This document shows positions 35,218 to 51,405 of a stretch of 64,000 nucleotides of DNA, piece after piece. Both the position numbers and the translations under genes were made by a program. Under the pieces are notes generated by a model. It did no database searches. It worked only from the letters and a program-made list of their open reading frames with translations, and was not told the origin of the DNA. Within the stretch, counting starts at the first letter, position 1; every line of letters starts with the position of its first letter. The DNA comes from Candidatus Latescibacterota bacterium (lineage in GTDB: Bacteria > Latescibacterota > UBA2968). The stretch spans positions 2,400,001 to 2,464,000 of the forward strand of contig OZ241986.1 in the NCBI GenBank assembly GCA_965204375.1. The letters are read 5' to 3'.

Positions 35218-35280
35218 GGTGAAGACGCTTGATCAATGCGTAATACTATCCACCAAACTGAACAAAGGAGAGCCTGACCT

Positions 35281-36783
35281 ATGGCCCTATCCACCACTAT
35301 CAAATCCATCCAGGACATCATGCGTAAGGATGTGGGCGTCGATGGTGACGCTCAGCGCATTGGTCAACTTGTCTGGCTGCTATTTCTCAAAATATGGGAT
35401 GATCGAGAGCAGGAATTAGAGATGCTCGAAGACCATTTCAGGTCTCCTTTGATCGACGTAACCTGGATGGAGGAAGGCGAGACCCGCACCGCTGCGGACT
35501 TGCGCTGGAGTGCCTGGGCCGCTGATCCGGAGGGTGATACTGGCGATAAACTGCTCAGCTTTGTCAACGATACGCTATTTCCCGCGCTCAAGGGCATGGA
35601 GGTCGGATCGCTCGCAGAGGATGCGCGTGTGCTCCGCTGTCGCCTGGTGCGCAGCGTCTTTGAGGACGCTTACCAGTACATGAAATCCGGCACCCTGCTG
35701 CGACAGGTCATCAACAAAATCCAATCCGACATCGACTTCAACGACGCCACGAACCGGCACTTATTCGGAAATATCTACGAGCAACTCCTCAAAGATCTCC
35801 AGGGAGCCGGGAACGCTGGTGAATATTACACGCCGAGGGCAGTGACCCAATTCGCGGTGGATATGATCAATCCTCGCCTCGGTGAATCCATTCTGGACCC
35901 GGCCTGTGGAACTGGTGGCTTTTTGTCGTGTGCCATTGAGCACATTCGCCGGCAGGACGTAAAGACACCCGAACAAGAGGCTCAACTACAAGAAAGTATT
36001 CAGGGCGTAGAGAAGAAGCCTCTACCACACTTGCTTTGCACCACCAACATGATTGTGCATGGCATTGACGTACCAACTGGCATTCAGCACAAAAACTCTC
36101 TGTCCCGTCCACTACACGATATCGGCATGAGTGACCGGGTCGATGTGGTGCTTACCAATCCGCCATTTGGCGGCATGGAGGAGGACGGAATTGAGGGTAA
36201 CTTTCCAGCCCAGTTCCGTACCCGTGAGACCGCAGATCTGTTCCTGGTATTGATCGTGGAGTTACTCAAGCCCGGTGGCCGTGCCGCAGTAGTTCTACCG
36301 GACGGGACCTTATTCGGCGAGGGCGTGAAGACGCGCCTGAAAGAACGCCTGCTCACCGAATGCGAATTGCACACCATCGTGCGCCTGCCCAACGGGGTAT
36401 TCGCACCGTACACCAGCATCAAAACCAACCTGCTATTTTTTGAGAAAGGGAGACCGACCACCGAGGTTTGGTACTACGAGCACCCCTACCCGGAAGGCTA
36501 CAAGTCCTACTCCAAGACCAAACCGATGCGGATTGAAGAGTTTGAGCCAGAAAAAGCGTGGTGGGACAATCGGGTCGAAAGTGAGTTCGCGTGGAAAGTC
36601 GGCATTGACGAGATACGCGAGCGTGGCTTCAATCTCGACATCGCCAACCCCAACGCGGTTGAGAGCGGCCACGGCGATCCGGATAAACTATTGGCATTAT
36701 ATAAAAAGGAACAAATAGAGATGGCAAAAGTGCGGGATCAACTAAAGCAGGCGTTGTCCGAGGCATTGGAGAGAACAGCATGA
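35281..36783 (+). CDS. hsdM: Type I m6A methyltransferase M subunit
   Basis: GEYYTPR, DPACGTGGFL, TNPPFGG. Confidence 0.95.
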   Translation: MALSTTIKSIQDIMRKDVGVDGDAQRIGQLVWLLFLKIWDDREQELEMLEDHFRSPLIDVTWMEEGETRTAADLRWSAWAADPEGDTGDKLLSFVNDTLFPALKGMEVGSLAEDARVLRCRLVRSVFEDAYQYMKSGTLLRQVINKIQSDIDFNDATNRHLFGNIYEQLLKDLQGAGNAGEYYTPRAVTQFAVDMINPRLGESILDPACGTGGFLSCAIEHIRRQDVKTPEQEAQLQESIQGVEKKPLPHLLCTTNMIVHGIDVPTGIQHKNSLSRPLHDIGMSDRVDVVLTNPPFGGMEEDGIEGNFPAQFRTRETADLFLVLIVELLKPGGRAAVVLPDGTLFGEGVKTRLKERLLTECELHTIVRLPNGVFAPYTSIKTNLLFFEKGRPTTEVWYYEHPYPEGYKSYSKTKPMRIEEFEPEKAWWDNRVESEFAWKVGIDEIRERGFNLDIANPNAVESGHGDPDKLLALYKKEQIEMAKVRDQLKQALSEALERTA

Positions 36784-37622
36784 CGACGCGGGAATTTATA
36801 GAGGTCTTTGATACGATTGTGGAGGCGCCGGGGGGGATTGATCGGTTGAGGGAGTTGGTACTCCATCTTGCGGTGCGCGGGCGGCTGGTGCCGCAGAACC
36901 CGAATGATGAACCGGTGAGTATGTTGATTGCTGAAATTAAGGCAGAAAAAGAACGGCTCCTTAGTAAAAAAATCATTACCAAATCCCGCTACCCCTCCGG
37001 AGTCTCTATTGAACCAAAACCCTTTGAAGTTCCCGAAAAGTGGCAATGGTTTCGCTTGGGTGATGTCGGCGCAATAGTGGGGGGTGGCACTCCGAAGAGC
37101 AGTGAGCCTTCTTTCTGGAGTGATGGTCAAGATATTCCTTGGCTTACACCAGCGGACATGCGAGGACAGTCCTCTCGTTATATCTTGCGAGGGGCTCGCG
37201 ACATTACATCCGAGGGCCTCAATAGATCGTCCGCTCAGATGCTACCAGCAGGGTCAGTTTTGTTTTCAAGTCGGGCGCCGATTGGATATGTTGGTATTGC
37301 AGCCAATCCGCTCAGTACTAACCAAGGCTTCAAATCCTGTGTACCCTATATTCCAGCCATGTCGAATTATCTGTACGTATTTCTCAAGTATGCCGGGCCA
37401 GGAATTGACAAGCAAGCTACGGGAACGACATTTAAGGAAGTGCCAGGCAAAGAATTTGCACTTATTCCGGTACCGATCCCACCTCTTGCTGAACAGCATC
37501 GCATCGTCGCCAAGGTTGATGAGCTTATGGAACTGATTGACCGGTTGGAGCAACACCTCGTTGCCAAAGGGAAGTATCACGAAGCCTTCGCAGCGGCTGC
37601 CATACACCACACAGAAGATTGA
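36780..37622 (+). CDS. hsdS: Type I specificity subunit, half-size (single TRD)
   Basis: LRELVL.LAVRGRLVPQ, PFE.P..W.W..LG, one TRD, PPLAEQ.RIV.KVDELM, then stop at 280 aa; ATGA overlap with hsdM. Confidence 0.85.
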   Translation: MTTREFIEVFDTIVEAPGGIDRLRELVLHLAVRGRLVPQNPNDEPVSMLIAEIKAEKERLLSKKIITKSRYPSGVSIEPKPFEVPEKWQWFRLGDVGAIVGGGTPKSSEPSFWSDGQDIPWLTPADMRGQSSRYILRGARDITSEGLNRSSAQMLPAGSVLFSSRAPIGYVGIAANPLSTNQGFKSCVPYIPAMSNYLYVFLKYAGPGIDKQATGTTFKEVPGKEFALIPVPIPPLAEQHRIVAKVDELMELIDRLEQHLVAKGKYHEAFAAAAIHHTED

Positions 37623-37712: not shown

Positions 37713-39089
37713 TCAACACAATGCAGTCGTATATCCAGGGTTGAGAGACAGAAAGTTTTGGGGATTGGGAACGGCTAAGCGATGATCAACAGAGAGCAGA
37801 TCGAGATCAATCAACTGATAGGGATTCTCGCCGTTTAGAAGGCGTAGCACTTGGGACAATACCAGCGTAGCAGCCACGGTGCCTACGAAGGGTGCGCCGA
37901 CCGCTTTGCCAGCCAGAAGTGTAACGCCGCAACGATCCAGTTCGCCACTTTTGAGCATTTCTTGATAGGCCGGGCGATCCTCAACTGTTTCGGAGAATGC
38001 CGTCGGTTTCCAAATCTCCTTTGCCGAACGTGAACCCGGTAGTACGTGCAGACGTATGGTACGGAAATTTTGTTGTCCTCTACCAAGCCCTGCTTCAACA
38101 ACCAGATCAAATCCTACTTGATCAAGTGCTCGCCTTCCAAGCGCATTATCCAAACCACACAACGCGATAGCTGGTTCTTCATCTTGGCGGTGGAAACTGT
38201 CATCAAACCGTCGCTCTTGTACCGCTGTCGCAAACCCGCGCCGTTCTGCCCAAGCAGCCATGGCACGGGTCTTTTTTTCACCCACCATTGTCGCGTTGCT
38301 CAAAATAGATGTGCTTTCAGTTGATGGAGTAATCTCGTCTATATCTTGCAGCACAAGAGAGAGATTTTCTGGATCCTTATAAGGCAGTAACCCAAGTCCC
38401 CAAAGATACGCTTGTCCTAGATGTCCAAGCCCAATCATCCAAAGTCGCGATGGAAGATAGGTTATCTGAGGTTCGTTTGGGTCAGATGCGAGCCAATTGT
38501 TATCTACTGTGGGTTGCCACAGCGATAGTCCTATCGGTCTTCTCCCCGCTGCAGAATCGCCTCTGTCCACAAACAGGAAGGCTTCATTGATCGCAAGGCC
38601 AGCGGACAGCATAGCCGCCAGTGGTATAGTAGGTCCAGGGGCTGGCTTTAGCACTGAATGAACTGGAAGGATGCCACCTCGCCAACCAGCGGCTGCCGTG
38701 CGGATATGAAATCTAGAGCATCTTGGTTGAGGACCTCCGCCGATAACAATGGTCGGCGTTCCATCATCAGAAGGTTCAAACGAGCCACCGAGTTCTGTCA
38801 CGGCCTCATGGAGCCTGCCCGGTAAAGGTAGTGGTAATTTCAGTGGCACATCTAAGTCGCCTTCTACGGAAACCCCGCCGAGGAATACACGCCGTCCAAG
38901 TGCAACCGCTGTCAACAACGCAATTTGATTGAGTGAATTTTGCGACTCAACTCCGTGGATGGTAAGCGCAAGGCGATAGCCTTGAAAGAGATTCTCAGCC
39001 TCGGCGAGAGTTCGGGCTTTTCCGCTATCAAGTGCGTACTTGACTAAGCGGTGTAGGTAATTGGCGTCTGGTTTGGTATTCATGGACAA
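37713..39089 (-). CDS. bilD: E1-like (ThiF-family) Ubl-activating enzyme of a Bil/ISG15-like system
   Basis: C-terminal adenylation domain with IGLGHLG, D.D, KT, CGLDN..R; candidate catalytic Cys in LDRCGVT; divergent N-terminal half. Confidence 0.8.
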   Translation of the reverse strand: MSMNTKPDANYLHRLVKYALDSGKARTLAEAENLFQGYRLALTIHGVESQNSLNQIALLTAVALGRRVFLGGVSVEGDLDVPLKLPLPLPGRLHEAVTELGGSFEPSDDGTPTIVIGGGPQPRCSRFHIRTAAAGWRGGILPVHSVLKPAPGPTIPLAAMLSAGLAINEAFLFVDRGDSAAGRRPIGLSLWQPTVDNNWLASDPNEPQITYLPSRLWMIGLGHLGQAYLWGLGLLPYKDPENLSLVLQDIDEITPSTESTSILSNATMVGEKKTRAMAAWAERRGFATAVQERRFDDSFHRQDEEPAIALCGLDNALGRRALDQVGFDLVVEAGLGRGQQNFRTIRLHVLPGSRSAKEIWKPTAFSETVEDRPAYQEMLKSGELDRCGVTLLAGKAVGAPFVGTVAATLVLSQVLRLLNGENPYQLIDLDLLSVDHRLAVPNPQNFLSLNPGYTTALC

Positions 39090-39095
39090 ATCTCT

Positions 39096-39614
39096 CTATA
39101 GACCGATGTGAAAAAAAGCCCTGCGAGCAGCGGGCGTAATGGTTTCCCAATGCTTCGCACCTTGGTAGCGATAGATACCGATTTGGCGCTTTGATATGGG
39201 ACCTGTAGCGAAGTGAGGAAGAATTAGTGCCAAATGACCTGCCTGTGCAATCATGGGATAAGCGCGATCTGACTCACTCTGCTGCGATCCACCAGGATGG
39301 ACATGAATATCGGCCACGACAACCAACCCTCTCTCTTTGCAAAGTGTCCAGAGCATCCCGAAGTATCGCCCGTCGAAGCGGACTATGCCGGTATCAAGGC
39401 AATGTGGATCGAGATCATCATACAGGACAAAATCAGTGATACGAGCACGTTGATCGTTTTGGTGACCTAGTAGAAAAGCACCGCTTTCCCTAGACTTACC
39501 GTGTCCCCGCTCCCGTAAGCAGACCAGCAAACGCCGCCAAAGAAACCAAGAACAGGACAACTCATGTCGCGGTGCAAAGAGGCGACGTATAGTCTCCGCT
39601 ATGAAGAAGTTCAT
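39096..39614 (-). CDS. bilC: JAB/MPN+ metallo-isopeptidase
   Basis: RESGAFLLG catalytic Glu; HVHP....QS.SD JAMM motif. Confidence 0.88.
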
Positions 39615-40035
39615 GGACGATCTCCAAGTATTGAACAATGCCTTCTACCGGACGCCAGATTTTTGACGGTATCTCGGTTCTCCAGTTTTCATGCCCAGCG
39701 AAGCTTTCACGATCACAAGGCAGGTACAACGCAGAGCCATTCTTCCAGTCAGGGCGAAAAACTGCAGAAACGCGGCCACCTTGGCCTTGTGGCCAGAGAC
39801 TGAATTCCAAGATGGTATTTTGCTCGGGATCCCATGGGCCACCCGTAGGCGGGGTTTGTGGATACCCCTCGCAGTTGAAGCGCAACACATATTGACGCTT
39901 ATCCTTCGCGGTCACTGAGATCAAGGCAAAGGGCCAGTCAATACGAATCAGGCACCAGCGTCCTTCTACTTGTCCAAGGCGGAACGCAGCCTTGGACAAG
40001 TCAGACTCGAATGCCCGCTGGTCGGGGGTACTCAA
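39562..40035 (-). CDS. bilB: E2-like Ubl-conjugating protein
   Basis: GYP..PP..WD E2 signature; candidate catalytic Cys in LYLPCDR; TTG start with GGAGG RBS overlapping the bilA stop. Confidence 0.78.
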
Positions 40036-40541
40036 GCTATGCCTCCAGTTGAGCCGTTCACCCTCTCGTCAGGAGTAAGGTCAAATGCCTGGCTGCAATC
40101 AAGACAATCCACCAGTGTGCCGATATGCGTCCCAGGGGTCGGCCTTTCGTGAGTGCCTACGATTTGCAGAGCATACTCACCGGCGTCTTTTGGCTCCATT
40201 CCAAATGCCTTTTCTGCTGCCCAACACTTGACACGGGCGATGGTCGCACTTGGCCCGAAACTGTGATCAACTGTGTGGCCATTGAAGGTCACGCTGACTT
40301 TGACGAGACAACAGCGATTCAGGTGGATCTTTATACCCGTCTCCTCAACGCAATCAATCACCTTCCAGTCTTCGTCAAGTGGTTCATCTTTGTCCTCCAA
40401 GAAGAGACACACGTCGCTGGCGAGGCTGTGCTTGTCGATCAACTCAGCCTTGACTATTGCGAATGTAGCGTCGTCTTCAACTTCGACATGCTGGATCTCG
40501 CGGATCCCTTCACACTGGTAAAACAGATCGAGTGTATCCAT
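40032..40541 (-). CDS. bilA: Di-ubiquitin-like (ISG15-like) protein with a 6-aa tail after Gly163
   Basis: Two ~80-aa beta-grasp-like halves; ends [13 protein letters not shown]; AGGAGG RBS; first gene of the Ubl-E2-JAB-E1 order. Confidence 0.75.
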
Positions 40542-40601
40542 AATACTATCCTCCTAAGAGCTAGAGCGAAGCTCCATTGCCCGTCTCTGCTCTTCACTTT
40601 A

Positions 40602-40633
40602 TTAATCGAATGAACAGACAGAAAGCGGAAAGC
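40602..40633 (-). promoter_or_regulatory. Candidate alternative-sigma promoter of bilABCD: GCTTTCCG-N17-CGATTAA
   Basis: Plus strand ttaatcg (40602-40608), 17 nt, cggaaagc (40626-40633); identical boxes and spacing at 45612-45643. Confidence 0.7.
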
Positions 40634-40646
40634 TTTAAAAAAATTT

Positions 40647-43600
40647 TTATGGGAGAGTTAGTGGTCCGCGAGGCGTAGCAGCACAGACAAAAAAATGCGG
40701 GCATCGCGGGCATGTAAATTCGTCGATATTGGAGGGAAACCATCCTTGCGTAATCTCAGCCAACATTTCATTAATCTTACGTCGGTGATTTTGGAGTCTT
40801 GTCGACGAGATCGGCACATTGTCGGATATCCCATCTACAAGGTGCAGCGCTCGAATCACCGCATCGGTACCAAAGTGTTCTTGACCGGCCAACATGTATA
40901 ATATGTAGTCAAGACGGCTATATTCATTACTACGCTTGTGACCAGGGCGAACCTTATATAAAGCGACTTTTTTGTTAGGTAAATCGGTGATCTCATTTGG
41001 TTTTACAAACACGCGACCATTTGGAAAATCTACTGCTAACGGTTCAGCCTCACGGGAATGCCATCCAGTTCTGGCTCTAATTAGGGTACCGACTAATTGC
41101 AAGGCGAGGCGGCGGTATTCGTCAGCGTAAGTATGTGCAACGGGCCCGTGTTTGCTCCAGATTATGTCGAATGTGGCTTCAGCTTCGGCGAGCGTCGGTT
41201 TGACTTCGCGCCAGCGCTCGGATACCCATTGTATTAGTTTGTAGAGACAATCATGGGCTTGCGAATAGGCAGTCGATTTACGAGCACTACCAAGGCCCAA
41301 TATATGGGTGTAGAAGAAACGGCGAGGACATTTCTCATAGGAAATAAGCTGACTGTCTGTGACGTGCCATTCGGTAGATTGCTCCACTTGGATAGGTATC
41401 GGACTTTGTATGTTAGCTGGCCGCGGCAAGACCACCGGATGGACAATTTTGTCGATTGTCCTATCTGGTAGCCAATCTAAGAAAGGAGATGATGATCGGT
41501 TCTTGCCACTGACACTTCGACGTGCTAAGTGGAGGCGCAGATAGGTCCGCGCTCGCGAGAGCGCAACGAAAAACAGGCATTCCTCCTCGTTTTGGTGGTT
41601 CAGCTTGGCCTCTTTAGTGACTGAAAAACCATCTACCCCTTCAATCATGCCGACTGGCGGTGGGCATCGCACGCCGCGGTACGACGTTGGCAAGCTCGAA
41701 ACCGTCAGTCCGGGTACATGGACCGCTTCAAACTCCAGACCTTTACTACCATGAATGGTCATCAGCCTCACTGCATTCATACGGAGTGCGGCGACAGGCA
41801 CTTGACGTAAATCTCGCTCTTCAGCGAGTAGTACGAGCCGACGGATACGTTCTAGCGTTCGCTGAATCAGTAAACCCGTGCCACTCGGAATCTGCTCGCG
41901 GATAAAATTAAGGAACTGCCAAACTGCAATACTCCGAATGCGGTCAGTGACCATCGTAGCTTGGGCCATCTCACGGACGAGGCTAGTGCGGTCAAGCAGA
42001 TACGTTGAAAGAAACTCCCAAGCGGACAAGTTAGTAGAGAGTCCCGATAGGTCCTGCGCGAGACGAGTAAGTGCTGACGCACCTTCAGGAGAGATACCTT
42101 GAGCCTTAGCGAGTGTTTCTATACCCGAAAGGGCTGGCTGATTGCTCTCTCGCAAATAGCGCGAGGCGGTATAGGCATCTTGCAACGAGAGACCGTAGCG
42201 CGGCATTGCTCCTACCCGCGTAAGACCATCACCAAATGGATCAACCGCAAGGCTTAGAAGTGCTAGTAAATCACGCACTTCCTCGCGCTCAAACAAGCTA
42301 CCGAGATGAAGAGAAGGAATGCCGTATGCTTCAAGTGCTGTGGCGATTTCACTAAGACGACGGTTTGAGCGACAGAGTACGGCCTGATCGCGAAGGGGAA
42401 CGCCAGCACATTCGAGTTCTCGAATGCTTCCGGCGATACCTCCGACTTCGTCGTCGGGTGTGTTGTAACATCGGACTTCTGGTTTTCCGGGACCAATGCC
42501 TCGGTCAGCATCAAGGTTGAGTGGTAACATGTCCTTGGATTTGGATGCACCCATCTGGGGAGCTACAGCAACGAAACTCGCAACAATCTGCTCCGTTGAT
42601 CTGTAGTTGGTAGTAAGTTGATCAATTACGGCCCCAGGATAGTCGTCGCAAAAACGAGCCATGTTGGTAGAGGACGCTCCCCGGAAGCGGTATATGGACT
42701 GGCGTGAGTCTCCAACTACCCACAGACGCTTGCCATCACCGGCGACTGCTTTCAACAAGCGTGCGCTCGCCCGGTTTACATCTTGGTACTCATCAACCAG
42801 AAGATGTCGGTGCCGCAATTGAACTGCGTGCTTGATTGCCGGATCGGATTCCAATAGTAGTACAGGTTGCATAATGAGATCGCCAAAGTCGATAGCATCT
42901 TGTTCACTCATAACGCTTTCATAGAGGTCGTATATATCGGCGATTTCCAAACACTTCTCGGCTGCTATGCGAGCTTCATCGTCGCATGCAGATGATCGCA
43001 TAGCCTCAGCGAGCTTGCGATAGTGGAACCGATCAGCAAGTTCATCCTTAGCCCGCGAGATGGCAGGAATTACATCTCGTAGTACTATCGTTGGGTCCCA
43101 GAAGTTGCGGTAGTGGACAAGGGGCAAAGTCGGAAGGATATCTTCAAGCATCTCAATCGCATCACTGCGGTCTAACAAAATTGGATCAGGGGATAAGCCA
43201 AGGCGGTCATGGTGTCGACGTATCAGATCAAGCCCGAAAGCATGGAATGTCCCAATCCAAATACGTTCAGCGGCCTCGGGCACTATGGCCATAAGTCGTT
43301 CCAGCAGTTCGCCAGCGGCTCGGTTTGAGAAGGTCAGGACGAGCAAAGCGGAAGGATCAATACCCTCTGCTATAAGTGATTCTACACGCTTTACTAACGT
43401 CCGCGTTTTTCCCGTTCCCGGCCCAGCCTGAAGCAGAAACGGGGCGTTGCGGTGTGTAGCTGCACGGTCCTGTGATGGATCCGAGATCAATGTCTGGATT
43501 GAAGCCATGGTAGAAGTTTCACCTTCTACTGTTTCATCTTCTACCGTGGGAAGTAAACAGGCATCAAATATCTGCTGCCGAACGAGTGCCTTTGGCAGAT

Positions 43601-44093
43601 TCATTTGCGAAGCGATAGCCGAGGCGGTCATTTTCTCTTTAAGATGAAGCCGACGTGCGAGACTCCGAGGTAATAGAAATTCCCGAGCGAAAACATCGGC
43701 CTGTAGTTCGCGTCGCTCCCGCGTACCATAGTCTTCGACACGTTGCAAACCAACGGGTACCGTCTCTGTTGAACGGGATGGGTCAATGTCACTCTCAGTA
43801 CAAGCCATCGAACCAGTGTGGGCATGTGCATGTCCAAGTTCATGAGCCACTAACAACGCACGTTTAATGACATCCTCTGTCTGTTCACAGCAGATTGTCC
43901 TGCTCTGTTCGTCAAACACAGCCCGGGCATTTTTAAGAGCTGGATCACCTGGTTCAAGCCAGAAGAGTTCAAGGTCGAGGTAAGCCACAGCAGCAGTAAT
44001 AAGTGCCGTAGTATCCAAAGGGTCTATCCCCCCTGAGATAATCTTATCGTGTAGATGTGCCGCGGACTTTCGAATTGGCTCAAATGCGTCCAT
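40647..44093 (-). CDS. Fusion of ImmA/IrrE Zn-protease domain, UvrD/Rep SF1 helicase and degenerate PD-(D/E)XK Fe-S domain
   Basis: AHELGH...E.QAD.FA..FLLP; AGPGTGKT, VDEYQD, GD.RQSIY.FRGA, NYRS, TIHGSKGLEF, VALSRAR; S....YE.CPRRF.Y and CPRCPHFFVC. Confidence 0.88.
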   Translation of the reverse strand: MDAFEPIRKSAAHLHDKIISGGIDPLDTTALITAAVAYLDLELFWLEPGDPALKNARAVFDEQSRTICCEQTEDVIKRALLVAHELGHAHAHTGSMACTESDIDPSRSTETVPVGLQRVEDYGTRERRELQADVFAREFLLPRSLARRLHLKEKMTASAIASQMNLPKALVRQQIFDACLLPTVEDETVEGETSTMASIQTLISDPSQDRAATHRNAPFLLQAGPGTGKTRTLVKRVESLIAEGIDPSALLVLTFSNRAAGELLERLMAIVPEAAERIWIGTFHAFGLDLIRRHHDRLGLSPDPILLDRSDAIEMLEDILPTLPLVHYRNFWDPTIVLRDVIPAISRAKDELADRFHYRKLAEAMRSSACDDEARIAAEKCLEIADIYDLYESVMSEQDAIDFGDLIMQPVLLLESDPAIKHAVQLRHRHLLVDEYQDVNRASARLLKAVAGDGKRLWVVGDSRQSIYRFRGASSTNMARFCDDYPGAVIDQLTTNYRSTEQIVASFVAVAPQMGASKSKDMLPLNLDADRGIGPGKPEVRCYNTPDDEVGGIAGSIRELECAGVPLRDQAVLCRSNRRLSEIATALEAYGIPSLHLGSLFEREEVRDLLALLSLAVDPFGDGLTRVGAMPRYGLSLQDAYTASRYLRESNQPALSGIETLAKAQGISPEGASALTRLAQDLSGLSTNLSAWEFLSTYLLDRTSLVREMAQATMVTDRIRSIAVWQFLNFIREQIPSGTGLLIQRTLERIRRLVLLAEERDLRQVPVAALRMNAVRLMTIHGSKGLEFEAVHVPGLTVSSLPTSYRGVRCPPPVGMIEGVDGFSVTKEAKLNHQNEEECLFFVALSRARTYLRLHLARRSVSGKNRSSSPFLDWLPDRTIDKIVHPVVLPRPANIQSPIPIQVEQSTEWHVTDSQLISYEKCPRRFFYTHILGLGSARKSTAYSQAHDCLYKLIQWVSERWREVKPTLAEAEATFDIIWSKHGPVAHTYADEYRRLALQLVGTLIRARTGWHSREAEPLAVDFPNGRVFVKPNEITDLPNKKVALYKVRPGHKRSNEYSRLDYILYMLAGQEHFGTDAVIRALHLVDGISDNVPISSTRLQNHRRKINEMLAEITQGWFPSNIDEFTCPRCPHFFVCAATPRGPLTLP

Positions 44094-44096
44094 AGA

Positions 44097-44750
44097 TTAG
44101 AACCTCAGAAGTTGATGCTTTTGTCCCTCGTTGAGAGCCGAACTCTGAATAGCCTCGACAAAGCTCTGTTGCTGGCTGCTCTCAGGCTTATTGTCAGCCT
44201 TGTAAAACTGATGACTAGCACTCACACTTGGTGCAGCAAAGTGGGCAGTTAATAGGTTAGGTGTAATCCCTAGTACATCTGCAAGGTACTGTAGAAAACT
44301 ACGTGGAATGGTATCCGGCTTGATTTGGCGATCTCGCAGCTTGATAACGAAAACAGTGTTCACGTCGATTCGATCCGCTAAAGCTCGAAAATCTACCTGG
44401 CTTAGTTCAGCGATGGGATTGGGAGCATCTGTAACTCCCAGCAAAGGAACGTGGTCACTTGGCGCCCTGGTCGCTTGGCGCACCGTGTGTAAACGATTCT
44501 GGAATCGACTTATTGCGCGCGAGACGGCGGGACTCACATAGTTTAGATCAATCTCCGCCTCCGCGTCGACTTCTAGCTCAGGTCGGAGAACGTCCATAGC
44601 GAGTTCAATAGCGAATTCCGTGAGTGAATCGGCATACTGAGGGAACCGCCGAACGAAATCGTCAAGAAGTTCTGCGTCGGGTACACTCTTCGCTAGCGAA
44701 AGATCATACAACACATCACGCAATGGTGCCCCGCTGGGGATCAGGGTCAA
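44097..44750 (-). CDS. Hypothetical protein with C-terminal XRE-like HTH; candidate anti-sigma factor / protease substrate
   Basis: TTG start with strong AGGAGG RBS, 2 nt after the sigma stop; ALADRIDVN...KLRDRQI...LADVLG resembles an XRE HTH; FYKAD..P motif. Confidence 0.6.
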   Translation of the reverse strand: MTLIPSGAPLRDVLYDLSLAKSVPDAELLDDFVRRFPQYADSLTEFAIELAMDVLRPELEVDAEAEIDLNYVSPAVSRAISRFQNRLHTVRQATRAPSDHVPLLGVTDAPNPIAELSQVDFRALADRIDVNTVFVIKLRDRQIKPDTIPRSFLQYLADVLGITPNLLTAHFAAPSVSASHQFYKADNKPESSQQQSFVEAIQSSALNEGQKHQLLRF

Positions 44751-44752
44751 GG

Positions 44753-45553
44753 TTATACCTCCTCCTTAAATATAGAAAGTTTTACTGCTGCCCTTGACAG
44801 GCGGTTACGAATAGTTCGGCCAGAGACTTTGCAGATAGTCGCTACTGTCACTTCATCGGGGTTCCGAGATTCAATCTTGTATCCCATTACATGGCAGAGT
44901 ATGACAGCCTCACGCTCGTCATCCGGCAAGGTATCAATCGCTTCGTAAATCTCTTTTAGTAGAGCAGCACTGTCGGTTTTCTCTGGACTCTGCAAGGCTT
45001 CTATGAGTCGGGCGGGAATTTCCTTATGGGTGTGAGACTCGGGCGCATCGGCTTGACTCGGAAGGGGTCTGAATCGCTTGAGACGAGTTCTTTCACTTCG
45101 GATCAGATCTTTGTAAAAAGCACGAAACGCCAGATTGAAACGACATTCGAAATAGTCAAGACGGTCACGATTTTCTTCCGTACCATCGGTGGCAAATAAC
45201 TCGCTGAACTGCCCAAGTACTTCTTCCCGGACATATGCCGCGTTTGAAAGTTCGTTATCCTGTATTTTGGCCAACAACATTTTTTCACATCGGGTGAGCA
45301 AAATAGGAAACACTGCATTTAATATAGCGTCGTCGTTATTTCGACAAGCATTCCGGATTAGATATACCAGACATTCAGAAAGTAAATAGTTGGGTAACTG
45401 AGCGTCAGTGACAGTGAGGCGGTGCTTAAGCGTTGCCAACTTCTGGGAAAGAATCTTATTGATCTGTGCCTCTACTCGCTCCGGACGGACGTATAAATTT
45501 CCGTCTGAATTTCTTTTCGTCAATGGGCGAGCCATTATCTTCTTTTTACGCAT
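44753..45553 (-). CDS. ECF-like sigma-70 family factor (start 45553 or 45535)
   Basis: Region 4-like AIDTLPDDEREAVIL....GY...VATIC.VS.RTIRNRLSRA..KL; region 2-like E.RF......Y.D.IR. Confidence 0.7.
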   Translation of the reverse strand: MRKKKIMARPLTKRNSDGNLYVRPERVEAQINKILSQKLATLKHRLTVTDAQLPNYLLSECLVYLIRNACRNNDDAILNAVFPILLTRCEKMLLAKIQDNELSNAAYVREEVLGQFSELFATDGTEENRDRLDYFECRFNLAFRAFYKDLIRSERTRLKRFRPLPSQADAPESHTHKEIPARLIEALQSPEKTDSAALLKEIYEAIDTLPDDEREAVILCHVMGYKIESRNPDEVTVATICKVSGRTIRNRLSRAAVKLSIFKEEV

Positions 45554-45611
45554 ATCTTCCTTTCTTTTTTTATGCAACATCAGATAGCGAGTAGGGTTTC
45601 TTCCTACTCTT

Positions 45612-45643
45612 TTAATCGTATTGTAATGGAAAAGCCGGAAAGC
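45612..45643 (-). promoter_or_regulatory. Candidate autoregulatory sigma promoter GCTTTCCG-N17-CGATTAA
   Basis: ttaatcg (45612-45618), 17 nt, cggaaagc (45636-45643); twin of 40602-40633. Confidence 0.7.
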
Positions 45644-45745
45644 GATCTTCACTATCGTTCATTATGATCGTCAACCTCTAATAAAAATCGCATAATAAAT
45701 GTTAGCCGATTAACCACTTGCGGCTAAAGGCTCTGTTGTGTTATC

Positions 45746-45774
45746 TTTACAAATAGAAGATACCAGATTATAAT
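45746..45774 (+). promoter_or_regulatory. Sigma70-type promoter for the XRE-IrrE operon
   Basis: TTTACA (45746-45751)-N17-TATAAT (45769-45774). Confidence 0.65.
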
Positions 45775-45785
45775 ATTTTCGTCAA
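45757..45785 (-). promoter_or_regulatory. Sigma70-type promoter for the sigma/anti-sigma/helicase operon
   Basis: TTGACG (45785-45780)-N17-TATCTT (45762-45757), overlapping the opposite promoter. Confidence 0.6.
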
Positions 45786-45809
45786 TCCCCTATTTCCGAA
45801 ATCGACAAC

Positions 45810-46181
45810 ATGAAAAGAAAAATTTCATCTAAACCATCTGAGGTCTTCAAGGACCGCCTTCGAGCGGCACGGGAAAATCTCCGTCAAATGACTCAGGTTG
45901 ATCTCGCCAGAGCAATCGGTCTGCCGCCAAGTTCCATTGCTCATTTCGAGAGTGGTAATAGAAAGCCCTCGTTTGATAATCTACACAAGATAGCCAACGC
46001 GCTAAACGTGACGACCGATTATCTCGTTGGTCGAGCGGATGATCCAAACACCACCGCGTCGGCCGATCCGATCTATCGGCACGTTGCGAATCTCACGGAT
46101 CAGAACCGCAGAACCGCCGAGGACTTTCTCCGTTTTCTCTCCGAACAAGACCGGAGACAACGCGAGGGCGATCATCAATGA
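45810..46181 (+). CDS. XRE-family HTH repressor (CapH/ImmR-like)
   Basis: RL..AR....MTQ.DLA...G...S.I.HFESG.RKPS..NL..IA.AL.VT.DYLVGR. Confidence 0.9.
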   Translation: MKRKISSKPSEVFKDRLRAARENLRQMTQVDLARAIGLPPSSIAHFESGNRKPSFDNLHKIANALNVTTDYLVGRADDPNTTASADPIYRHVANLTDQNRRTAEDFLRFLSEQDRRQREGDHQ

Positions 46182-47065
46182 GGAAAGTATCCAGCCATCG
46201 TCAAAAGTCGCTGGTGCGAAGAGCTGAACGGTTACTCCAAGACGAAAGCCTTTTGGAGTTGCCTGTTGACCTTGAAGCCCTGGCCCAGACCCGAGGGATA
46301 TTCGTTCAGGAAATGGAGTCGGACGAGGAAGGGGTATCGGGCATGCTCCTGCGCTATGGTGACACATTTGGGATCCTATATTCTACTCAAATTCCGAACA
46401 TAGGATTTCAGCAGTTCAGTATCGCCCACGAACTCGGTCACTACTTTATTGACGGCCATCTGGACCAAATTCCATTCGACGGTAATATGCACCGTTCACG
46501 GGCAGGTTTCGTCTCCAATAATTATTACGAACGCGAGGCCGACCACTTCGCCGCCGGTCTCTTGATGCCAATTACACCCGTTCGCAGGATTATTGACAGA
46601 TCTCCCGGCGGTTTTGGCAGCATCGAAGCTATTCAGCAGGAAACGAATGCCTCTCTTACAGCCGCAGCTATCCGCTATGTTGGAATGACAGACGAGGCTG
46701 TGGCCATCATTGTCAGTAGCGATGGAATCGTCGATTATTGTTTTATGTCCGAGACTATGAGGTCGTTAGAAGGAATAGAGTGGCTACATAAAGGTACGCT
46801 GGTCCCATCAGATACCACTACAGAGTCTATTTGGAATAAATCGGAAGAAGAGCAGCGCGAGGCTTATGCCGAAGACGACGTCGATATCACGGCTTGGTTT
46901 GGGGGCCACAGGTCAGTTGCAGCCTGGGAGGAAGTAATCGGACTCGGAACCTATGGACGAATACTAACAGTTCTGACCTGTCCTGATCTAATCGATGATG
47001 ACTATATGGACGAGGTCTCTGACGAGGCATTGGAGGAGAGTTGGACACCTCGGTTTCGGCGTTAA
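46178..47065 (+). CDS. ImmA/IrrE-family metalloprotease (CapP-like)
   Basis: FSIAHELGH, EREADHFAAGLLMP, SLTA.AIR, C-terminal GAF-like extension; ATGA overlap with the XRE gene. Confidence 0.9.
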   Translation: MRKVSSHRQKSLVRRAERLLQDESLLELPVDLEALAQTRGIFVQEMESDEEGVSGMLLRYGDTFGILYSTQIPNIGFQQFSIAHELGHYFIDGHLDQIPFDGNMHRSRAGFVSNNYYEREADHFAAGLLMPITPVRRIIDRSPGGFGSIEAIQQETNASLTAAAIRYVGMTDEAVAIIVSSDGIVDYCFMSETMRSLEGIEWLHKGTLVPSDTTTESIWNKSEEEQREAYAEDDVDITAWFGGHRSVAAWEEVIGLGTYGRILTVLTCPDLIDDDYMDEVSDEALEESWTPRFRR

Positions 47066-47162
47066 GCAACCGTTAGGCTATATCCATGCATACTGTAATG
47101 GAATTACTTGAATACATGCGTCGTGTAAAACAGTGGGTAAAGGAGTTTTAAAAATACTTCTT

Positions 47163-48590
47163 ATGGAAAAGTTTAAAAAAATAAAACAACTTTCAGAACT
47201 AAACTTTTCAAATAGAGGAGAATCATTTGTTGAGTCTAAGTTTTTGACGCCTCTATTAGATTGTTTAGGCTATGAGAGTCATAATGACTATGAGGTTCGC
47301 CGACACGGTGATACAGGAACATCTTTCAAACTTAATTATCCCCCAGTAGAGAAAGGAGCAAAAAAAGTAAAGTACTACAACCCAGATTATATGCCTACAA
47401 TCCGCAAGAAGATATTTTGGATTATAGAAGCAAAATCGCCTAAATTGGTGCCTTACCCTTTTGAGTATAAGTACATTGTGCAAGGACTTCAGTACTGTAT
47501 TCATCCCGAAATCCAAGCAAAATACCTTGTTCTGAGTAACGGTAAACACACCTGTATATATGATCCTCATTCAGCGATATTCTTTAATGAGAACATCTAT
47601 GAGCCAGTGTTTGAGTTTAGAAGTAATGAAGTTTATGAAAAATGGGAGGAAGTATATAATTTTTTAGGCGTTGAGAAGCTAAGATCAAAAATAGAAGACA
47701 GCCTAAAAAGTTATTATGAAAAACTGTGCCTATCTTCTCTTGATGAGGACTATCCTGAAAAAGTTGGAAAAAAAATAACTAGCGAGCAATCCGCACTAAA
47801 ACATCAAATACGGAACCACGTAGCAAAGCTATATGTTAAAATGACAGATGACGACTACTCCCGGCTTCAACATAAGTACGAAAACTTTTCATTAGCTAAT
47901 CTAGAGAATTATATGAAGAATCCTGTAACAAGAGGTAAAGAGCCATCCCAACATTATGTAGAAAAGTTGCTCAAAGAAAAGCCGCCTGATGAGATATTTT
48001 CTTTGCTTATTTCTAATTACAACGATTTCAGTTTTTTCCAAAAACAACACTCTATGGTTGCGGTCTGCCACTTGCATAATCTAATAGGTAATTCTCAATT
48101 GAAACAGACTATAAAGGCTTATGTCCTTCGCAAAATATCAGACAAGATTCCCATACTGAATAAAGCAGAAAGTGCCTTTCTAAGAGTGATTAGAAAACTA
48201 TTAATTATCGGAGAATATCCCAAAATAAGACAAGTGCTATCTGAGTATTTAAGGTCGCTTCCTGAAATAGATAGATTTGTCAATCCGCCAACGCCTCTAT
48301 ACTACACATATCCAATTGAGCTAATACTTCACGATCATTATTTTAAGATTCTTAAGAATATGACTTCAGAAGAGTTAGAGTTGTTAACCCAAAAACTGCT
48401 TAAAGAAGAAGCCGAAATTGAACAAGCCTTTACAGAAGCTTGGGAATCACTACCAGGTAATGAAAAAGAAATAAATGGTTTCGAGTCTTATGGATTGGGG
48501 GACAAAATGTATACACTTGGAAATATAGCTAAGAATTTTGGTATAATCTCACGAGAACACTTAGACTCTTTGCGAATTATTCGACACTAA
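47163..48590 (+). CDS. HsdR-N-like PD-(D/E)XK nuclease domain plus helical C-terminus; candidate defence protein
   Basis: E..VE..F..PLL..LGY, PDY.......WIIEAK, Q...Y, VLSNG; visibly AT-rich. Confidence 0.7.
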   Translation: MEKFKKIKQLSELNFSNRGESFVESKFLTPLLDCLGYESHNDYEVRRHGDTGTSFKLNYPPVEKGAKKVKYYNPDYMPTIRKKIFWIIEAKSPKLVPYPFEYKYIVQGLQYCIHPEIQAKYLVLSNGKHTCIYDPHSAIFFNENIYEPVFEFRSNEVYEKWEEVYNFLGVEKLRSKIEDSLKSYYEKLCLSSLDEDYPEKVGKKITSEQSALKHQIRNHVAKLYVKMTDDDYSRLQHKYENFSLANLENYMKNPVTRGKEPSQHYVEKLLKEKPPDEIFSLLISNYNDFSFFQKQHSMVAVCHLHNLIGNSQLKQTIKAYVLRKISDKIPILNKAESAFLRVIRKLLIIGEYPKIRQVLSEYLRSLPEIDRFVNPPTPLYYTYPIELILHDHYFKILKNMTSEELELLTQKLLKEEAEIEQAFTEAWESLPGNEKEINGFESYGLGDKMYTLGNIAKNFGIISREHLDSLRIIRH

Positions 48591-48742: not shown

Positions 48743-49291
48743 ATGGCTATCCCAAATCCTATCATCAAGTTTACCTACGAAGATTACCTGAACACGCCGG
48801 ACGACAAGCGTTACGAACTTTTGGACGGAGAGTTAGTTATGCCCCCTGCCCCAGGAGAATTTCATCAAAGTGTCTCTATCCAACTGGGGGCAAAACTGTT
48901 CCTATTCACATCTGAGCATAGCCTGGGCCGGATCTATCACGCGCCCTTCGACGTGGTGCTATCAGATATGGATGTGGTGCAGCCCGACCTGATCTTCGTC
49001 TCCAATGAACGTGCCGATATCATCACTCCTGCGAATATTCAAGGTGCACCAGACCTCGTCGTCGAAATTCTGTCTCCTTCCACAGCAACACGAGACAAGA
49101 CCTTCAAGCGTAGCCTGTATGCCAGGCACGGTATAACCGAGTACTGGATGGTCGATCTAACCGAAAAAAACATAACAATCCTGCGCCTTGGCGAGCGCGG
49201 ATTCGAGGTAGTCAATACCTATGGTGAAGGGGAAACATTGACTTCGCCCACATTGCAAGGATTCACTTTGAACCTCGACGACATATTTTAA
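48743..49291 (+). CDS. Uma2 (DUF820) family endonuclease
   Basis: RYEL.DGEL, HQ, QPDL.FV, APDLVVEILSPST..RD...K..LY. Confidence 0.92.
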   Translation: MAIPNPIIKFTYEDYLNTPDDKRYELLDGELVMPPAPGEFHQSVSIQLGAKLFLFTSEHSLGRIYHAPFDVVLSDMDVVQPDLIFVSNERADIITPANIQGAPDLVVEILSPSTATRDKTFKRSLYARHGITEYWMVDLTEKNITILRLGERGFEVVNTYGEGETLTSPTLQGFTLNLDDIF

Positions 49292-49316
49292 GTGCTCGCA
49301 GCAGGGCCACCGAATT

Positions 49317-49757
49317 ATGACTATCAATACAACTCGCTGGGATTCAGCAGAGTACCTCAAAACGGAAGAAGATGTGCAGTTATACCTGGAAGCCTGCCTT
49401 GAAGAAGCAGGAGATGATCCCGTTTTTATAGCCCATGCATTGGGTGTAATTAATCGAGCCAAAAATATGAGCCAGTTCGAGAGCATCAAACAAGGATTAA
49501 CAGAAGCGATTGAACACGCGGCAGGCCGGGTAAGTGAGGCGGTTGTGCATTTTCCACCCACCCCTGATGTGAAATCCATACGGAAGCAAGTTGGGATGAC
49601 GCAAACGGCCTTTGCAGCCACGTTTGGCGTTAGTCTCAGTACGCTACGTCGCTGGGAGCGCGGTGACCGAACCCCTCAGGGACCCGCACGAGTGTTGCTA
49701 CATTTGGTCGCCCACGAACCTCAGGCGGTTTTGAGGGCGTTGGAGAAAGTGCGTTGA
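49317..49757 (+). CDS. Chimeric antitoxin: HI1420-like addiction-antidote N-terminus fused to a HigA-like XRE protein
   Basis: WD.AEYL.TEED...YL.A..E...D...IA.ALG...RAK.MSQ joined to FESIKQGL.EA...DVK.IR....TQ..FA.......LR.WE.G.R.P.GPA..LL. Confidence 0.7.
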   Translation: MTINTTRWDSAEYLKTEEDVQLYLEACLEEAGDDPVFIAHALGVINRAKNMSQFESIKQGLTEAIEHAAGRVSEAVVHFPPTPDVKSIRKQVGMTQTAFAATFGVSLSTLRRWERGDRTPQGPARVLLHLVAHEPQAVLRALEKVR

Positions 49758-49924
49758 ACGACCGACCCGTATCGCGTCTCGTTCCCGGTCACGAGGAGAA
49801 ACCGAGCATGTTTGGCAGGGACCGGCATAAAATTCGCATCCTCGGCGACATTATTGAACCGATCGGCGTAACATGGGAGGCAGAAAAGGGGAAGTCGTGG
49901 AAGGAGGAAGATGATACTGCTTGA
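49757..49924 (+). pseudogene. Phd/YefM antitoxin, C-terminal fragment
   Basis: Manual translation NDRPVSRLVP...MFGRDR.KI.ILGDIIEPI...WEA; N-terminal DNA-binding part missing; overlaps the vapC start. Confidence 0.65.
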
Positions 49925-50075
49925 TACCCATGTGCTACTGTGGCTAAGAACAGGGGACGCTCGACTGGGGCCAATGACTCGCCGAGTGATTGGTCGTGCA
50001 GAAAACGAAGGCGAAGTAGCGGTCTCCGCTGAACCTACCGTCTCTAACCGCCCGGCAGTGGAACGTTTTGGCTGA
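49911..50075 (+). pseudogene. Truncated VapC/PIN toxin
   Basis: AAGGAGG RBS; MILLDTHVLLW......LG...R..I.......VAVSA, then unrelated sequence and stop at 54 aa. Confidence 0.75.
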
Positions 50076-50128
50076 ATAGAAAGGCGTTGAGTTCGGGTTT
50101 GAGTAGATGTTTGCTTTGGATAAATTTC

Positions 50129-50160
50129 AATGGGGTCGCTCTCTGCAGAGCGACCCCATT
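50129..50160. terminator. 14-bp perfect hairpin between convergent units
   Basis: aatggggtcgctct-ctgc-agagcgaccccatt. Confidence 0.7.
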
Positions 50161-50234
50161 TCAAATCAAGTTACTCGGGCTTACTTACTATAGGGAGAAG
50201 AAAAAGTCGTTCTGATCCCACAAAATTGAGAATA

Positions 50235-50609
50235 TCAACCCGTGCCCGTATTGGCGAGCTCTTCTGGACTCTTACTCGTCCATTCAGGAGCATGGAGAAG
50301 GACCGGCGCACGGTCTTCCTCCGACCAAATGGGCATAGAAAGTCCCCAGTATAAAAAATGGATCCTATGCCCATTTTCTTCTATCTCGTTTTCGCGACCA
50401 TCTTTTGTGTAAACCACTACGATGTCACCCGTTTTTACTCTTTTATCGGGAAACCAATAGGTGTTGTACGCATGCGTGGTTAAGCCGCTGTCGTAAACCG
50501 TTTGGAGCAATATATATTCACCAATATCTGTATTGGCACGCACATTAAGGATCAGGCGTTCCTTTTTCAGATCCCCCTTATTTTCTAAGGAAAGAATAGC
50601 CAGTCTCAT
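50235..50609 (-). CDS. Hypothetical protein, lamin-tail-domain-like beta-sandwich
   Basis: ER.......DIG.Y, YWFP...V..GD.V.VYT..G, YWG....IW pattern; no signal peptide. Confidence 0.5.
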   Translation of the reverse strand: MRLAILSLENKGDLKKERLILNVRANTDIGEYILLQTVYDSGLTTHAYNTYWFPDKRVKTGDIVVVYTKDGRENEIEENGHRIHFLYWGLSMPIWSEEDRAPVLLHAPEWTSKSPEELANTGTG

Positions 50610-50704
50610 GACTTCACCACCTTCTCACTTTAGCGGCAATACCGCCGAGAATCAATTCTCTTTCGGCACTAATTTTTAGGGCACTATGTAGCAGAGTGCC
50701 GGTC

Positions 50705-50974
50705 CTAAACAATTTCACTATTGACCAGGTGCTTGTAATAGCTTTCTTGAGACATGTTGCAAGAGGCAATCTCTTGATATTGCTGTTTCGTGATATGCAG
50801 TTGTTTACAAAATGATTTCAGAAGGCCGTGTCCAACATCTCCATTTCCGTGACTTACACCTGTTTTTACACGCTTTGTTTCTTTTGGAAATACCCATTTT
50901 TCATGTTTTTTCCCTCCATCGTGAACAAATCCGAGCTTTCTAAGAACCTTTCGTCTATGTTCTGCCAAAGTCAT
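50705..50974 (-). CDS. HicA-like toxin
   Basis: L.KLGF....G.KH, T.VSHG..DV..GLL....KQL. Confidence 0.65.
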   Translation of the reverse strand: MTLAEHRRKVLRKLGFVHDGGKKHEKWVFPKETKRVKTGVSHGNGDVGHGLLKSFCKQLHITKQQYQEIASCNMSQESYYKHLVNSEIV

Positions 50975-51405
50975 ACCTTGAAGACCTCTTTTAAGAATTT
51001 ATATCGCCTTTTCTGATATGGGGAACTATCGTTGTCTTTGGATTTTTTGAGTTCTTTAATATCTTGAATATCGTCGCAAACAATCTCGACCAAGACATCC
51101 AACGCATCTTCCCAACTATCATTGCTACCACCAATAATGCTCGGAAAATCTTCAAAAAACACCGCCCATGATCCGTCTCGAAATTCCTCAAAGGTAACAA
51201 TGTGATGTCCGCCAGGTAAAGGCAAATTAGCCTTTATCCAGCGAACTGGTTCGTCCTCTTGTGGTGGTGCAAGGGATTCAGGTTCTTTGCGGGAATAATC
51301 ATCCAGACAAGCATGACCTTTTTCCTCAAAACGGCTTAGTAATGATTGACGAACTAACCAAGAGGCTTCAGTCTCCTCTGGTGGACCTGCTGACATCATA
51401 GACAT
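50971..51405 (-). CDS. HicB-like antitoxin with N-terminal extension
   Basis: F....DGSW....EDFP...G....EDAL..L.E; ATGA overlap with the downstream hicA-like gene. Confidence 0.55.
   Translation of the reverse strand: MSMMSAGPPEETEASWLVRQSLLSRFEEKGHACLDDYSRKEPESLAPPQEDEPVRWIKANLPLPGGHHIVTFEEFRDGSWAVFFEDFPSIIGGSNDSWEDALDVLVEIVCDDIQDIKELKKSKDNDSSPYQKRRYKFLKEVFKV

Follow-up and report, generated by a model that had tools for sequence, protein, structure and literature searches.

Bil and Bub operons, which carry ubiquitin-like conjugation genes, are described with few dedicated regulators: the parts of this literature covered here name CapW, CapH/CapP and CapK/CapS (PMC13373217) only, with neither a sigma factor nor a helicase among them. 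We analyzed a 64,000-nucleotide stretch of a Candidatus Latescibacterota bacterium (GCA_965204375.1, contig OZ241986.1, positions 2,400,001 to 2,464,000 of the forward strand; hereafter the window, with positions counted from its first letter), where a type I BilABCD operon and a gene for an extracytoplasmic function (ECF)-like sigma factor carry the same bipartite motif upstream. Going by sequence, this motif is very likely the -35/-10 promoter of the adjacent sigma factor, driving both its own operon and bilABCD.

The closest relatives of the promoter are the autoregulated promoters of ECF group 4, which, as far as the cited excerpts go (Todor et al. 10.1101/2020.06.23.168245; Casas-Pastor et al. 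PMC7826278), likewise have a bipartite motif, spaced by 16-18 nt, ahead of both the sigma gene and the genes that the sigma factor controls, an Asp that selects -13C/-12G, and an adjacent anti-sigma factor, putative in our case. Unlike them, the cassette sigma factor has a sigma2 domain that goes undetected by the Pfam model with which ECFs were collected, and it has an extra N-terminal region, a sigma4 insertion and a motif copy within its coding sequence; the searched part of the Casas-Pastor et al. supplement held no ECF group with this gene context. CalpL-CalpT-CalpS (10.1101/2024.05.08.593097) and Csx29-Csx30-CASP-sigma (PMC10028731) also combine, in the sections covered, a defence-linked protease, a soluble anti-sigma factor bound through its N-terminal part and an ECF sigma factor with motif copies in its own locus. 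CalpL and Csx29 are CRISPR-triggered Lon or CHAT proteases, whereas our cassette has no cas genes, has Bil or Bub cargo, and encodes an M78 peptidase fused to UvrD instead of a cyclic oligoadenylate- or RNA-activated Lon or CHAT protease. CapH/CapP (Lau et al. 10.1101/2022.04.27.489752), ImmR/ImmA and DdrO/IrrE, to the extent described in the excerpts, share an M78 peptidase and an XRE helix-turn-helix (HTH) protein upstream of immune operons, with an aromatic-basic site following the HTH. They differ in that CapH represses and CapP is a separate protein, whereas here the HTH protein has a predicted domain for binding the sigma factor and peptidase and helicase form one protein, so that neither is the stand-alone XRE repressor or M78 peptidase of those pairs. 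Type I BilABCD (Hor et al. 10.1101/2023.09.04.556158; Chambers et al. 10.1101/2023.09.26.559546) and Bub (Ye et al. 10.1101/2024.11.21.623953), again as partly consulted, would be the regulated cargo. These known parts very probably form a new arrangement, a previously undescribed sigma/anti-sigma/peptidase-helicase switch for ubiquitin-like operons. A description of the cassette was not found in the literature as far as covered, including Iyer 2006, 10.1101/2025.11.14.688446, PMC13434031 and PMC11601603, and the Lau et al. table, the Bil and Bub operon tables and subscription papers may record the sigma factor. Lau et al. do report, in the part covered, a sigma70 gene beside capH/capP in 24 cyclic oligonucleotide-based antiphage signaling systems, some of which may overlap with the cassette sigma factor.

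A first-pass annotation of the window had reported two identical copies of the motif in the same orientation, with 17-nt spacers of unlike sequence, and this proved exact. On the minus strand, the predicted bilA promoter copy lies at 40602-40633 (-35-like box 40626-40633, -10-like box 40602-40608, predicted +1 at 40595, a G preceded by T) and the predicted sigma-gene copy at 45612-45643 (-35-like box 45636-45643, -10-like box 45612-45618, predicted +1 at 45605, an A preceded by T), each about 60 nt ahead of an ATG (40541 for bilA, 45553 for the sigma gene). Two details needed revision. The core CTTTCCG(G)-N17-CGATYA holds, and the leading G and final A of the motif as first drawn are unconserved in the family; position 45553 is only one of two candidate sigma starts, because most homologues begin at the Met of MARPL (45535). 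The whole genome (6,340,849 bases) contains two exact matches, none with one mismatch and ten with two, and the 0.01 exact matches expected from box counts refer to a pattern picked after the fact. For this reason, an intergenic shuffle test was run, and the 15 box positions common to both intergenic regions were reached by 0 of 400 shuffled pairs (maximum 14). A scoring matrix built from 107 homologous sites, with the window and Latescibacterota excluded, placed the window copies first and third genome-wide, so the regulon appears to be the cassette itself; the search for further copies that the annotation had proposed left only these two strong intergenic sites. The second-ranked site (C1:3667132) lies antisense within a gene and lacks the CG, and it was rejected as a regulon member; it falls in a two-gene pair (G000:C1:3665803-3669398) that we take to resemble McrB/McrC. 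We also rejected the -35 box as a palindromic operator, as CCGG is followed by G/T-T-T and not by AAA. Positions 40000-46300 are covered with zero differences by one short-read contig, which may come from the source sample, and contigs of relatives have one extra base at 40611, within the spacer, which could not be told apart from alignment noise.

Conservation across related loci carries most of the argument. We gathered 95 such loci, many on short contigs, and gene order was constant wherever contigs were long enough. We set aside 6 loci whose upstream DNA was short and 8 duplicates, and allowed no more than one mismatch. With the window counted, 73 of the remaining 81 loci then had CTTTCCG-N16-18-CGAT ahead of the sigma gene; after the helicase stop and before the ubiquitin-like operon it was found in 40 of 47 (5 duplicates removed, window included), against a background of 76 in 2160 windows. 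The motif is therefore kept in position and spacing at homologous loci, and the loci that miss the core motif are variants. The boxes, near 2 bits of information, are constant among loci, while flanks and spacers vary, the spacer staying mostly below 0.5 bits; a bipartite motif with a 16-18 nt spacer upstream of a sigma operon is the form of an ECF promoter. When the C of CGAT is numbered -13, the +1 base is a purine at 37/37 bil sites and the -1 base a pyrimidine at 35/37, and at the sigma sites the counts are 56/67 and 40/67.

The motif is found across several phyla and varies with the cassette sigma factor, and where it drifts, the copies of one locus drift jointly. Locus L114 has CTTCCG..CGAT twice, both copies at L113, where residue 149 of the sigma factor is Lys, are changed to GTTCCG-N17-GAATTA, and sigma factors at only 13-22% identity are accompanied by paired variants at L124 (register judged by eye), L125, L128 and L129. 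Five loci from a 401-genome sample were picked without using the motif; all have a cargo copy, three have a TTACCG copy ahead of bubA and another, with 0-1 mismatch, within the sigma gene, and L113 and L114 are the other two, which adds weight to the proposed pairing of sigma factor and promoter. None of 20 same-genus genomes carries the sigma gene, for which reason we regard the locus as an island. A partial match in G024 was at family level, with the cassette not present, and viral contigs yielded 0 of 76 candidates.

The sigma gene (44753..45553, minus strand) encodes 266 aa, or 260 from the conserved Met, with a recognisable sigma4, a divergent sigma2 and about 55 additional N-terminal residues; it has 315 relatives at 90% clustering. 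Pfam Sigma70_r4_2 matches above cut-off in 102/102 members, and a profile of the family aligns over its full length with 12 ECF-like proteins encoded in the genome (probability 88.6, E 2.6e-6). The predicted model (predicted local distance difference test, pLDDT, 82) has two helical domains and a low-confidence linker at 162-176, and the protein has the ECF layout of no sigma3, no region 1.1 and a short linker. The top 10 Foldseek rows are all ECF sigma factors at E 0.01-0.03, none significant. In this alignment, Asp149 falls on the D of IAVNxxxD, the ECF N-x-x-x-D position, and Glu118 on the K of FLKAF, positions that we take to be equivalent to Asn84 and Lys56 of RpoE. At residue 149, Asp coincides with a -10 CG at 97/97 near-clade sites, and of the near-clade sites without it, 11 lose the CG and 5 keep it. 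In the published ECF code, according to the part of Todor et al. covered here, Asp at the former position specifies -13C/-12G, and an acidic residue at the Lys56 position accompanies -11A, so that Asp149 and Glu118 would predict the C-G-A of our -10 box.

Several observations pull the other way. Pfam Sigma70_r2 is missing from the 25 families listed for the 102 members, and Foldseek gave no match at E<=0.001 for the sigma model. N, A, T and S at residue 149 retain the CG, and residue 118 is acidic in just 64/93. The eight near-clade loci that lose the CG may share one origin, being explained by a single change on the quick tree used for change counts, with L113 and L124 adding other lineages. 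Residue Q195 of the neighboring 217-aa protein separates the CG-loss loci as well as D149 of the sigma factor does (0.96 each). L127, where the sigma gene is truncated, has no recognisable copy, and L126 yields a de novo candidate only. Even so, conserved position and spacing, start-site bases, joint drift of the copies, the ECF code and absence of the motif from three of three CapH/CapP-type operons support what the first-pass annotation had proposed, namely that this is the cognate promoter of the island sigma factor and controls Bil.

The gene downstream of the sigma gene (44097..44750, minus strand) encodes the 217-aa protein, in which an N-terminal helical part is predicted to bind the sigma factor and is followed by an XRE-like HTH (~108-172) and a conserved F-Y-K-A-x-x-K-P linker. 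It has 335 relatives at 90% clustering and 588 representatives at E<=1e-10, with zero Pfam, PADLOC or NCBIfam matches. The predicted complex of sigma residues 7-266 with residues 1-100 of this protein scored 0.75, the best of three controls scoring 0.00; this mark is reached by 116/157 solved pairs and 2/215 mismatched pairs. Contact agreement was at least 76% and partner pLDDT at least 74, and the modeled partner touches both sigma2 and sigma4. From these models we consider it likely that the 217-aa protein acts as an anti-sigma factor on sigma2 and sigma4. All of its fold matches are below Z 8, and the XRE HTH rows, which include ImmR, CapH and DdrO, are weak (Z 4-5.5).

Next follows the gene for a 1148-aa protein (40647..44093, minus strand) with an IrrE/ImmA (M78) peptidase, a UvrD helicase and a degenerate PD-(D/E)XK domain with four invariant Cys. 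The HExxH motif, Glu129, Walker A/B and the four Cys are invariant in 52/52 helicase fusions, and since the peptidase and Walker residues are kept while the nuclease motif is degenerate, the protein fits a sensor-protease role. We propose that the sigma factor would transcribe its own gene, the 217-aa gene and the peptidase-helicase gene, with the second copy serving for bilABCD. In the resting state, the 217-aa protein would hold sigma2 and sigma4; the UvrD fusion would bind single-stranded or broken DNA arising from phage replication or damage, and the IrrE-type peptidase would cut the anti-sigma factor C-terminal to the XRE-like HTH, the probable target being the conserved aromatic-Lys site, where residue 184 is Lys/Arg in 233/242. 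Host proteases would then complete its degradation, and the freed sigma factor would induce Bil. The overall scheme, in which type I Bil and Bub are preceded by motif promoter, sigma factor, anti-sigma factor and peptidase-helicase sensor, seems probable to us. The step in which DNA-triggered cleavage of the anti-sigma factor frees the sigma factor, drawn by analogy with CapP/CapH, CalpT and Csx30, is somewhat favored. In the excerpts covered, Lau et al. report that CapP cuts CapH at Phe82-Arg83 and is activated by single-stranded DNA.

Some results count against this scheme. The complex score may owe to likeness with solved sigma/anti-sigma pairs, a sequence search having found no solved relative of the 217-aa protein. 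A cut C-terminal to the predicted sigma-binding part would give no release by itself, and the Cupriavidus locus L012 (10001-15716) retains both promoter copies without the peptidase-helicase gene. These points leave some room, at perhaps one chance in a handful, for the same promoter and anti-sigma factor with release without cleavage, where the peptidase-helicase would remodel or sequester the 217-aa protein, or be a sigma-transcribed effector, with the signal entering elsewhere. Such a scheme would also suit the order of the 217-aa protein, whose sigma-binding region (1-100) precedes the putative cut, and the weak likeness of its linker to the CapH site (hhalign E 0.05, probability 1%). However, it leaves unexplained the invariance of the peptidase residues and of the basic residue at 184, as well as an XRE-like HTH, weak as its matches are, of the kind found in IrrE-family substrates; moreover, Csx30 and CalpT are likewise cut outside the sigma-binding part and then degraded later, according to the portions of those papers covered here, which shows that a cut in such a position can work. 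In L012, the place of the helicase is taken by an inverted 295-aa gene of no known kind.

A further possibility, that the HTH of the 217-aa protein uses the motif as its operator and no sigma promoter is involved, is unlikely. It could account for the constant company of protein and motif and for the protein column that tracks the -10 variant, but Q195 is not part of the HTH, and K137, which does best among the HTH columns (0.84), breaks down on L113. Two dissimilar boxes 17 nt apart, oriented with the genes and bearing a start-site signature, are also foreign to an operator, and the -10 bases are predicted by sigma residues. That a host sigma factor reads the motif, the cassette sigma factor having some other role, is very unlikely: the genome does hold at least 12 ordinary ECF-like proteins, but it has no host regulon beyond the two strong intergenic sites, and the motif is the same across several phyla and changes with the cassette sigma factor. 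Least of all can the motif be a CapH operator or a relic of chance or duplication, readings already contradicted: capH and capP do adjoin one copy, yet they accompany none of the 95 motif-keeping loci and the CapP-type operons lack the motif, and differing spacers and flanks around fixed boxes, with the shuffle result, speak against a mere relic.

The capH (45810-46181) and capP (46178-47065) genes lie divergently on the plus strand (45810..47065) and form a CapH/CapP-type regulator pair, a local addition outside the conserved cassette. Because the pair was found at 0/95 related loci, many of them on short contigs, the motif tracks the sigma cassette and not the XRE protein, and the alternative that the motif serves as an operator for the latter, which the annotation had left standing, was rejected. 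The three CapH/CapP-type ubiquitin-like operons checked, namely two bilA loci with CapP-like neighbors and the Bub operon of this genome, had no upstream motif. The last is a separate type II Bub-like operon (G000:C1:4048485-4051778) with XRE and peptidase-like genes and an adjoining transposase. Between the sigma gene and capH, sigma70-like matches overlap divergently at 45746..45785 (plus strand 45746-45774, 11/12; minus strand 45785-45757, 9/12 with TG); these are consensus matches only, with 9 in the region against 13.5 in shuffles, and we regard the site as a candidate CapH-controlled priming promoter. The genome may thus stack CapH/CapP control onto the sigma cassette. In other runs, related contigs extend from the sigma promoter into capH.

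The sigma gene itself contains a third copy, which, with the proposed anti-sigma role of the 217-aa protein and the Bub cargo, goes beyond the first-pass annotation. Here it is decayed (44935..44964, minus strand; matrix score -9.7), with the -10 retained and the -35 lost; in many relatives it is intact and would drive the 217-aa and helicase genes. More distant sigma factors (27-31% identity) are encoded in 75 plasmid records, of which 16 were fetched, and stand ahead of Bil or Bub operons (multiubiquitin, ThiF, DUF6527). All 13 distant loci have a cargo copy, mostly TTACCG-N17-CGATT, just 2/13 have a copy upstream of the sigma gene, and 12/13 have a perfect internal copy 184-193 nt before the sigma stop, in a single frame, where it codes F/Y-R and A-I at the start of sigma4. 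The third -35 base, a T/A variant with two changes on the tree, is identical in internal and cargo copies in 12/12 distant loci that have both. Among 93 different sigma factors, 38 have F/Y-R; in these, the preceding codon ends in T in 30 (expected 7.2), Ala is GCG in 32/37 (expected 13.1) and Arg is CGG in 33. Part of this synonymous bias is due to shared ancestry, as it is also raised in sigma factors without internal F/Y-R (T 26/55 against 11.1, GCG 31/49 against 15.0), and the counts ignore kinship. Intact internal copies could supply extra anti-sigma factor and sensor as negative feedback in relatives, and in our genome, where the copy is decayed, capH/capP may prime sigma expression instead; we offer this tentatively.

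The cargo begins with bilA (40032..40541), a ubiquitin-like gene of 169 aa (PADLOC BilA, E 2e-52), followed on the same minus strand by bilB (39562..40035), an E2 with Cys107, bilC (39096..39638), a JAB peptidase, and bilD (37713..39089), an E1 (E 1e-165). This order of ubiquitin-like, E2, deubiquitinase and E1 genes with matching profiles is that of type I BilABCD, and we call the cargo type I-like because BilB lacks the Glu and His of CEHH that Chambers et al., in the part covered, assign to type II E2 proteins. The bil transcript is predicted to open with a stem-loop (40556..40594, minus strand, z -3.6) that has a GGCA-type inner loop and stops just ahead of the ribosome-binding site. Among bil leaders, 24/37 reach z<=-2 and 5/7 stem-loop pairs show two-sided change; there was no Rfam match near threshold, two sub-threshold ones being dismissed, and the 5' hairpin of the sigma copy is unconserved (z<=-2 in 4/67). 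Of 21 plasmid records with bilA, 12 were examined, and a sigma-like gene lies upstream in 11 of the 12 (one truncated, one without helicase). The twelfth, in Sinorhizobium medicae (L123:5304-5501), has only a helicase tail and the promoter, and its bil operon was possibly orphaned from the sigma cassette. A search for bilA in 401 genomes of the G001 class returned the seed only. A Bub-linked form occurs on Acinetobacter megaplasmids (L015:10004-17211; 44 of the plasmid sigma records).

Bil and Bub systems studied so far lacked native control, and for Bub no phage protection was reported in the part of Ye et al. covered. If our scheme is correct, it would name a trigger for Bil and Bub operons, some of which are phenotype-less when cloned alone, and with an exact promoter, predicted starts and a candidate anti-sigma factor and cut site, the inducing signal becomes testable by a simple reporter. 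It would extend protease/anti-sigma/sigma signaling in defence beyond CRISPR and would provide a sigma family that escapes standard ECF searches, sigma-promoter pairs that vary in nature, and an internal promoter that also codes for protein. At slightly short of even odds, we would go further and propose a fourth class of immune-operon regulator as the usual native switch of type I Bil, in which a helicase-coupled IrrE peptidase senses DNA structure, destroys an HTH-bearing anti-sigma factor and frees a sigma family missed by ECF catalogues, with a promoter in the sigma4 codons as negative feedback.

Other genes flank the island. A type I restriction-modification set (32893-37622) with a short single-domain HsdS of 280 aa converges on bilD, and L002 and L003 have the same type I restriction-modification neighbor with a two-domain HsdS. 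After capP, a low-GC reading frame of 485 aa (47133-48590) has weak HSDR_N and ABC-3C CTD11 matches and could be a defence nuclease, and it is followed by a cluster of Uma2 nuclease, HTH antitoxin-like and HicA-like genes (48743-51405).

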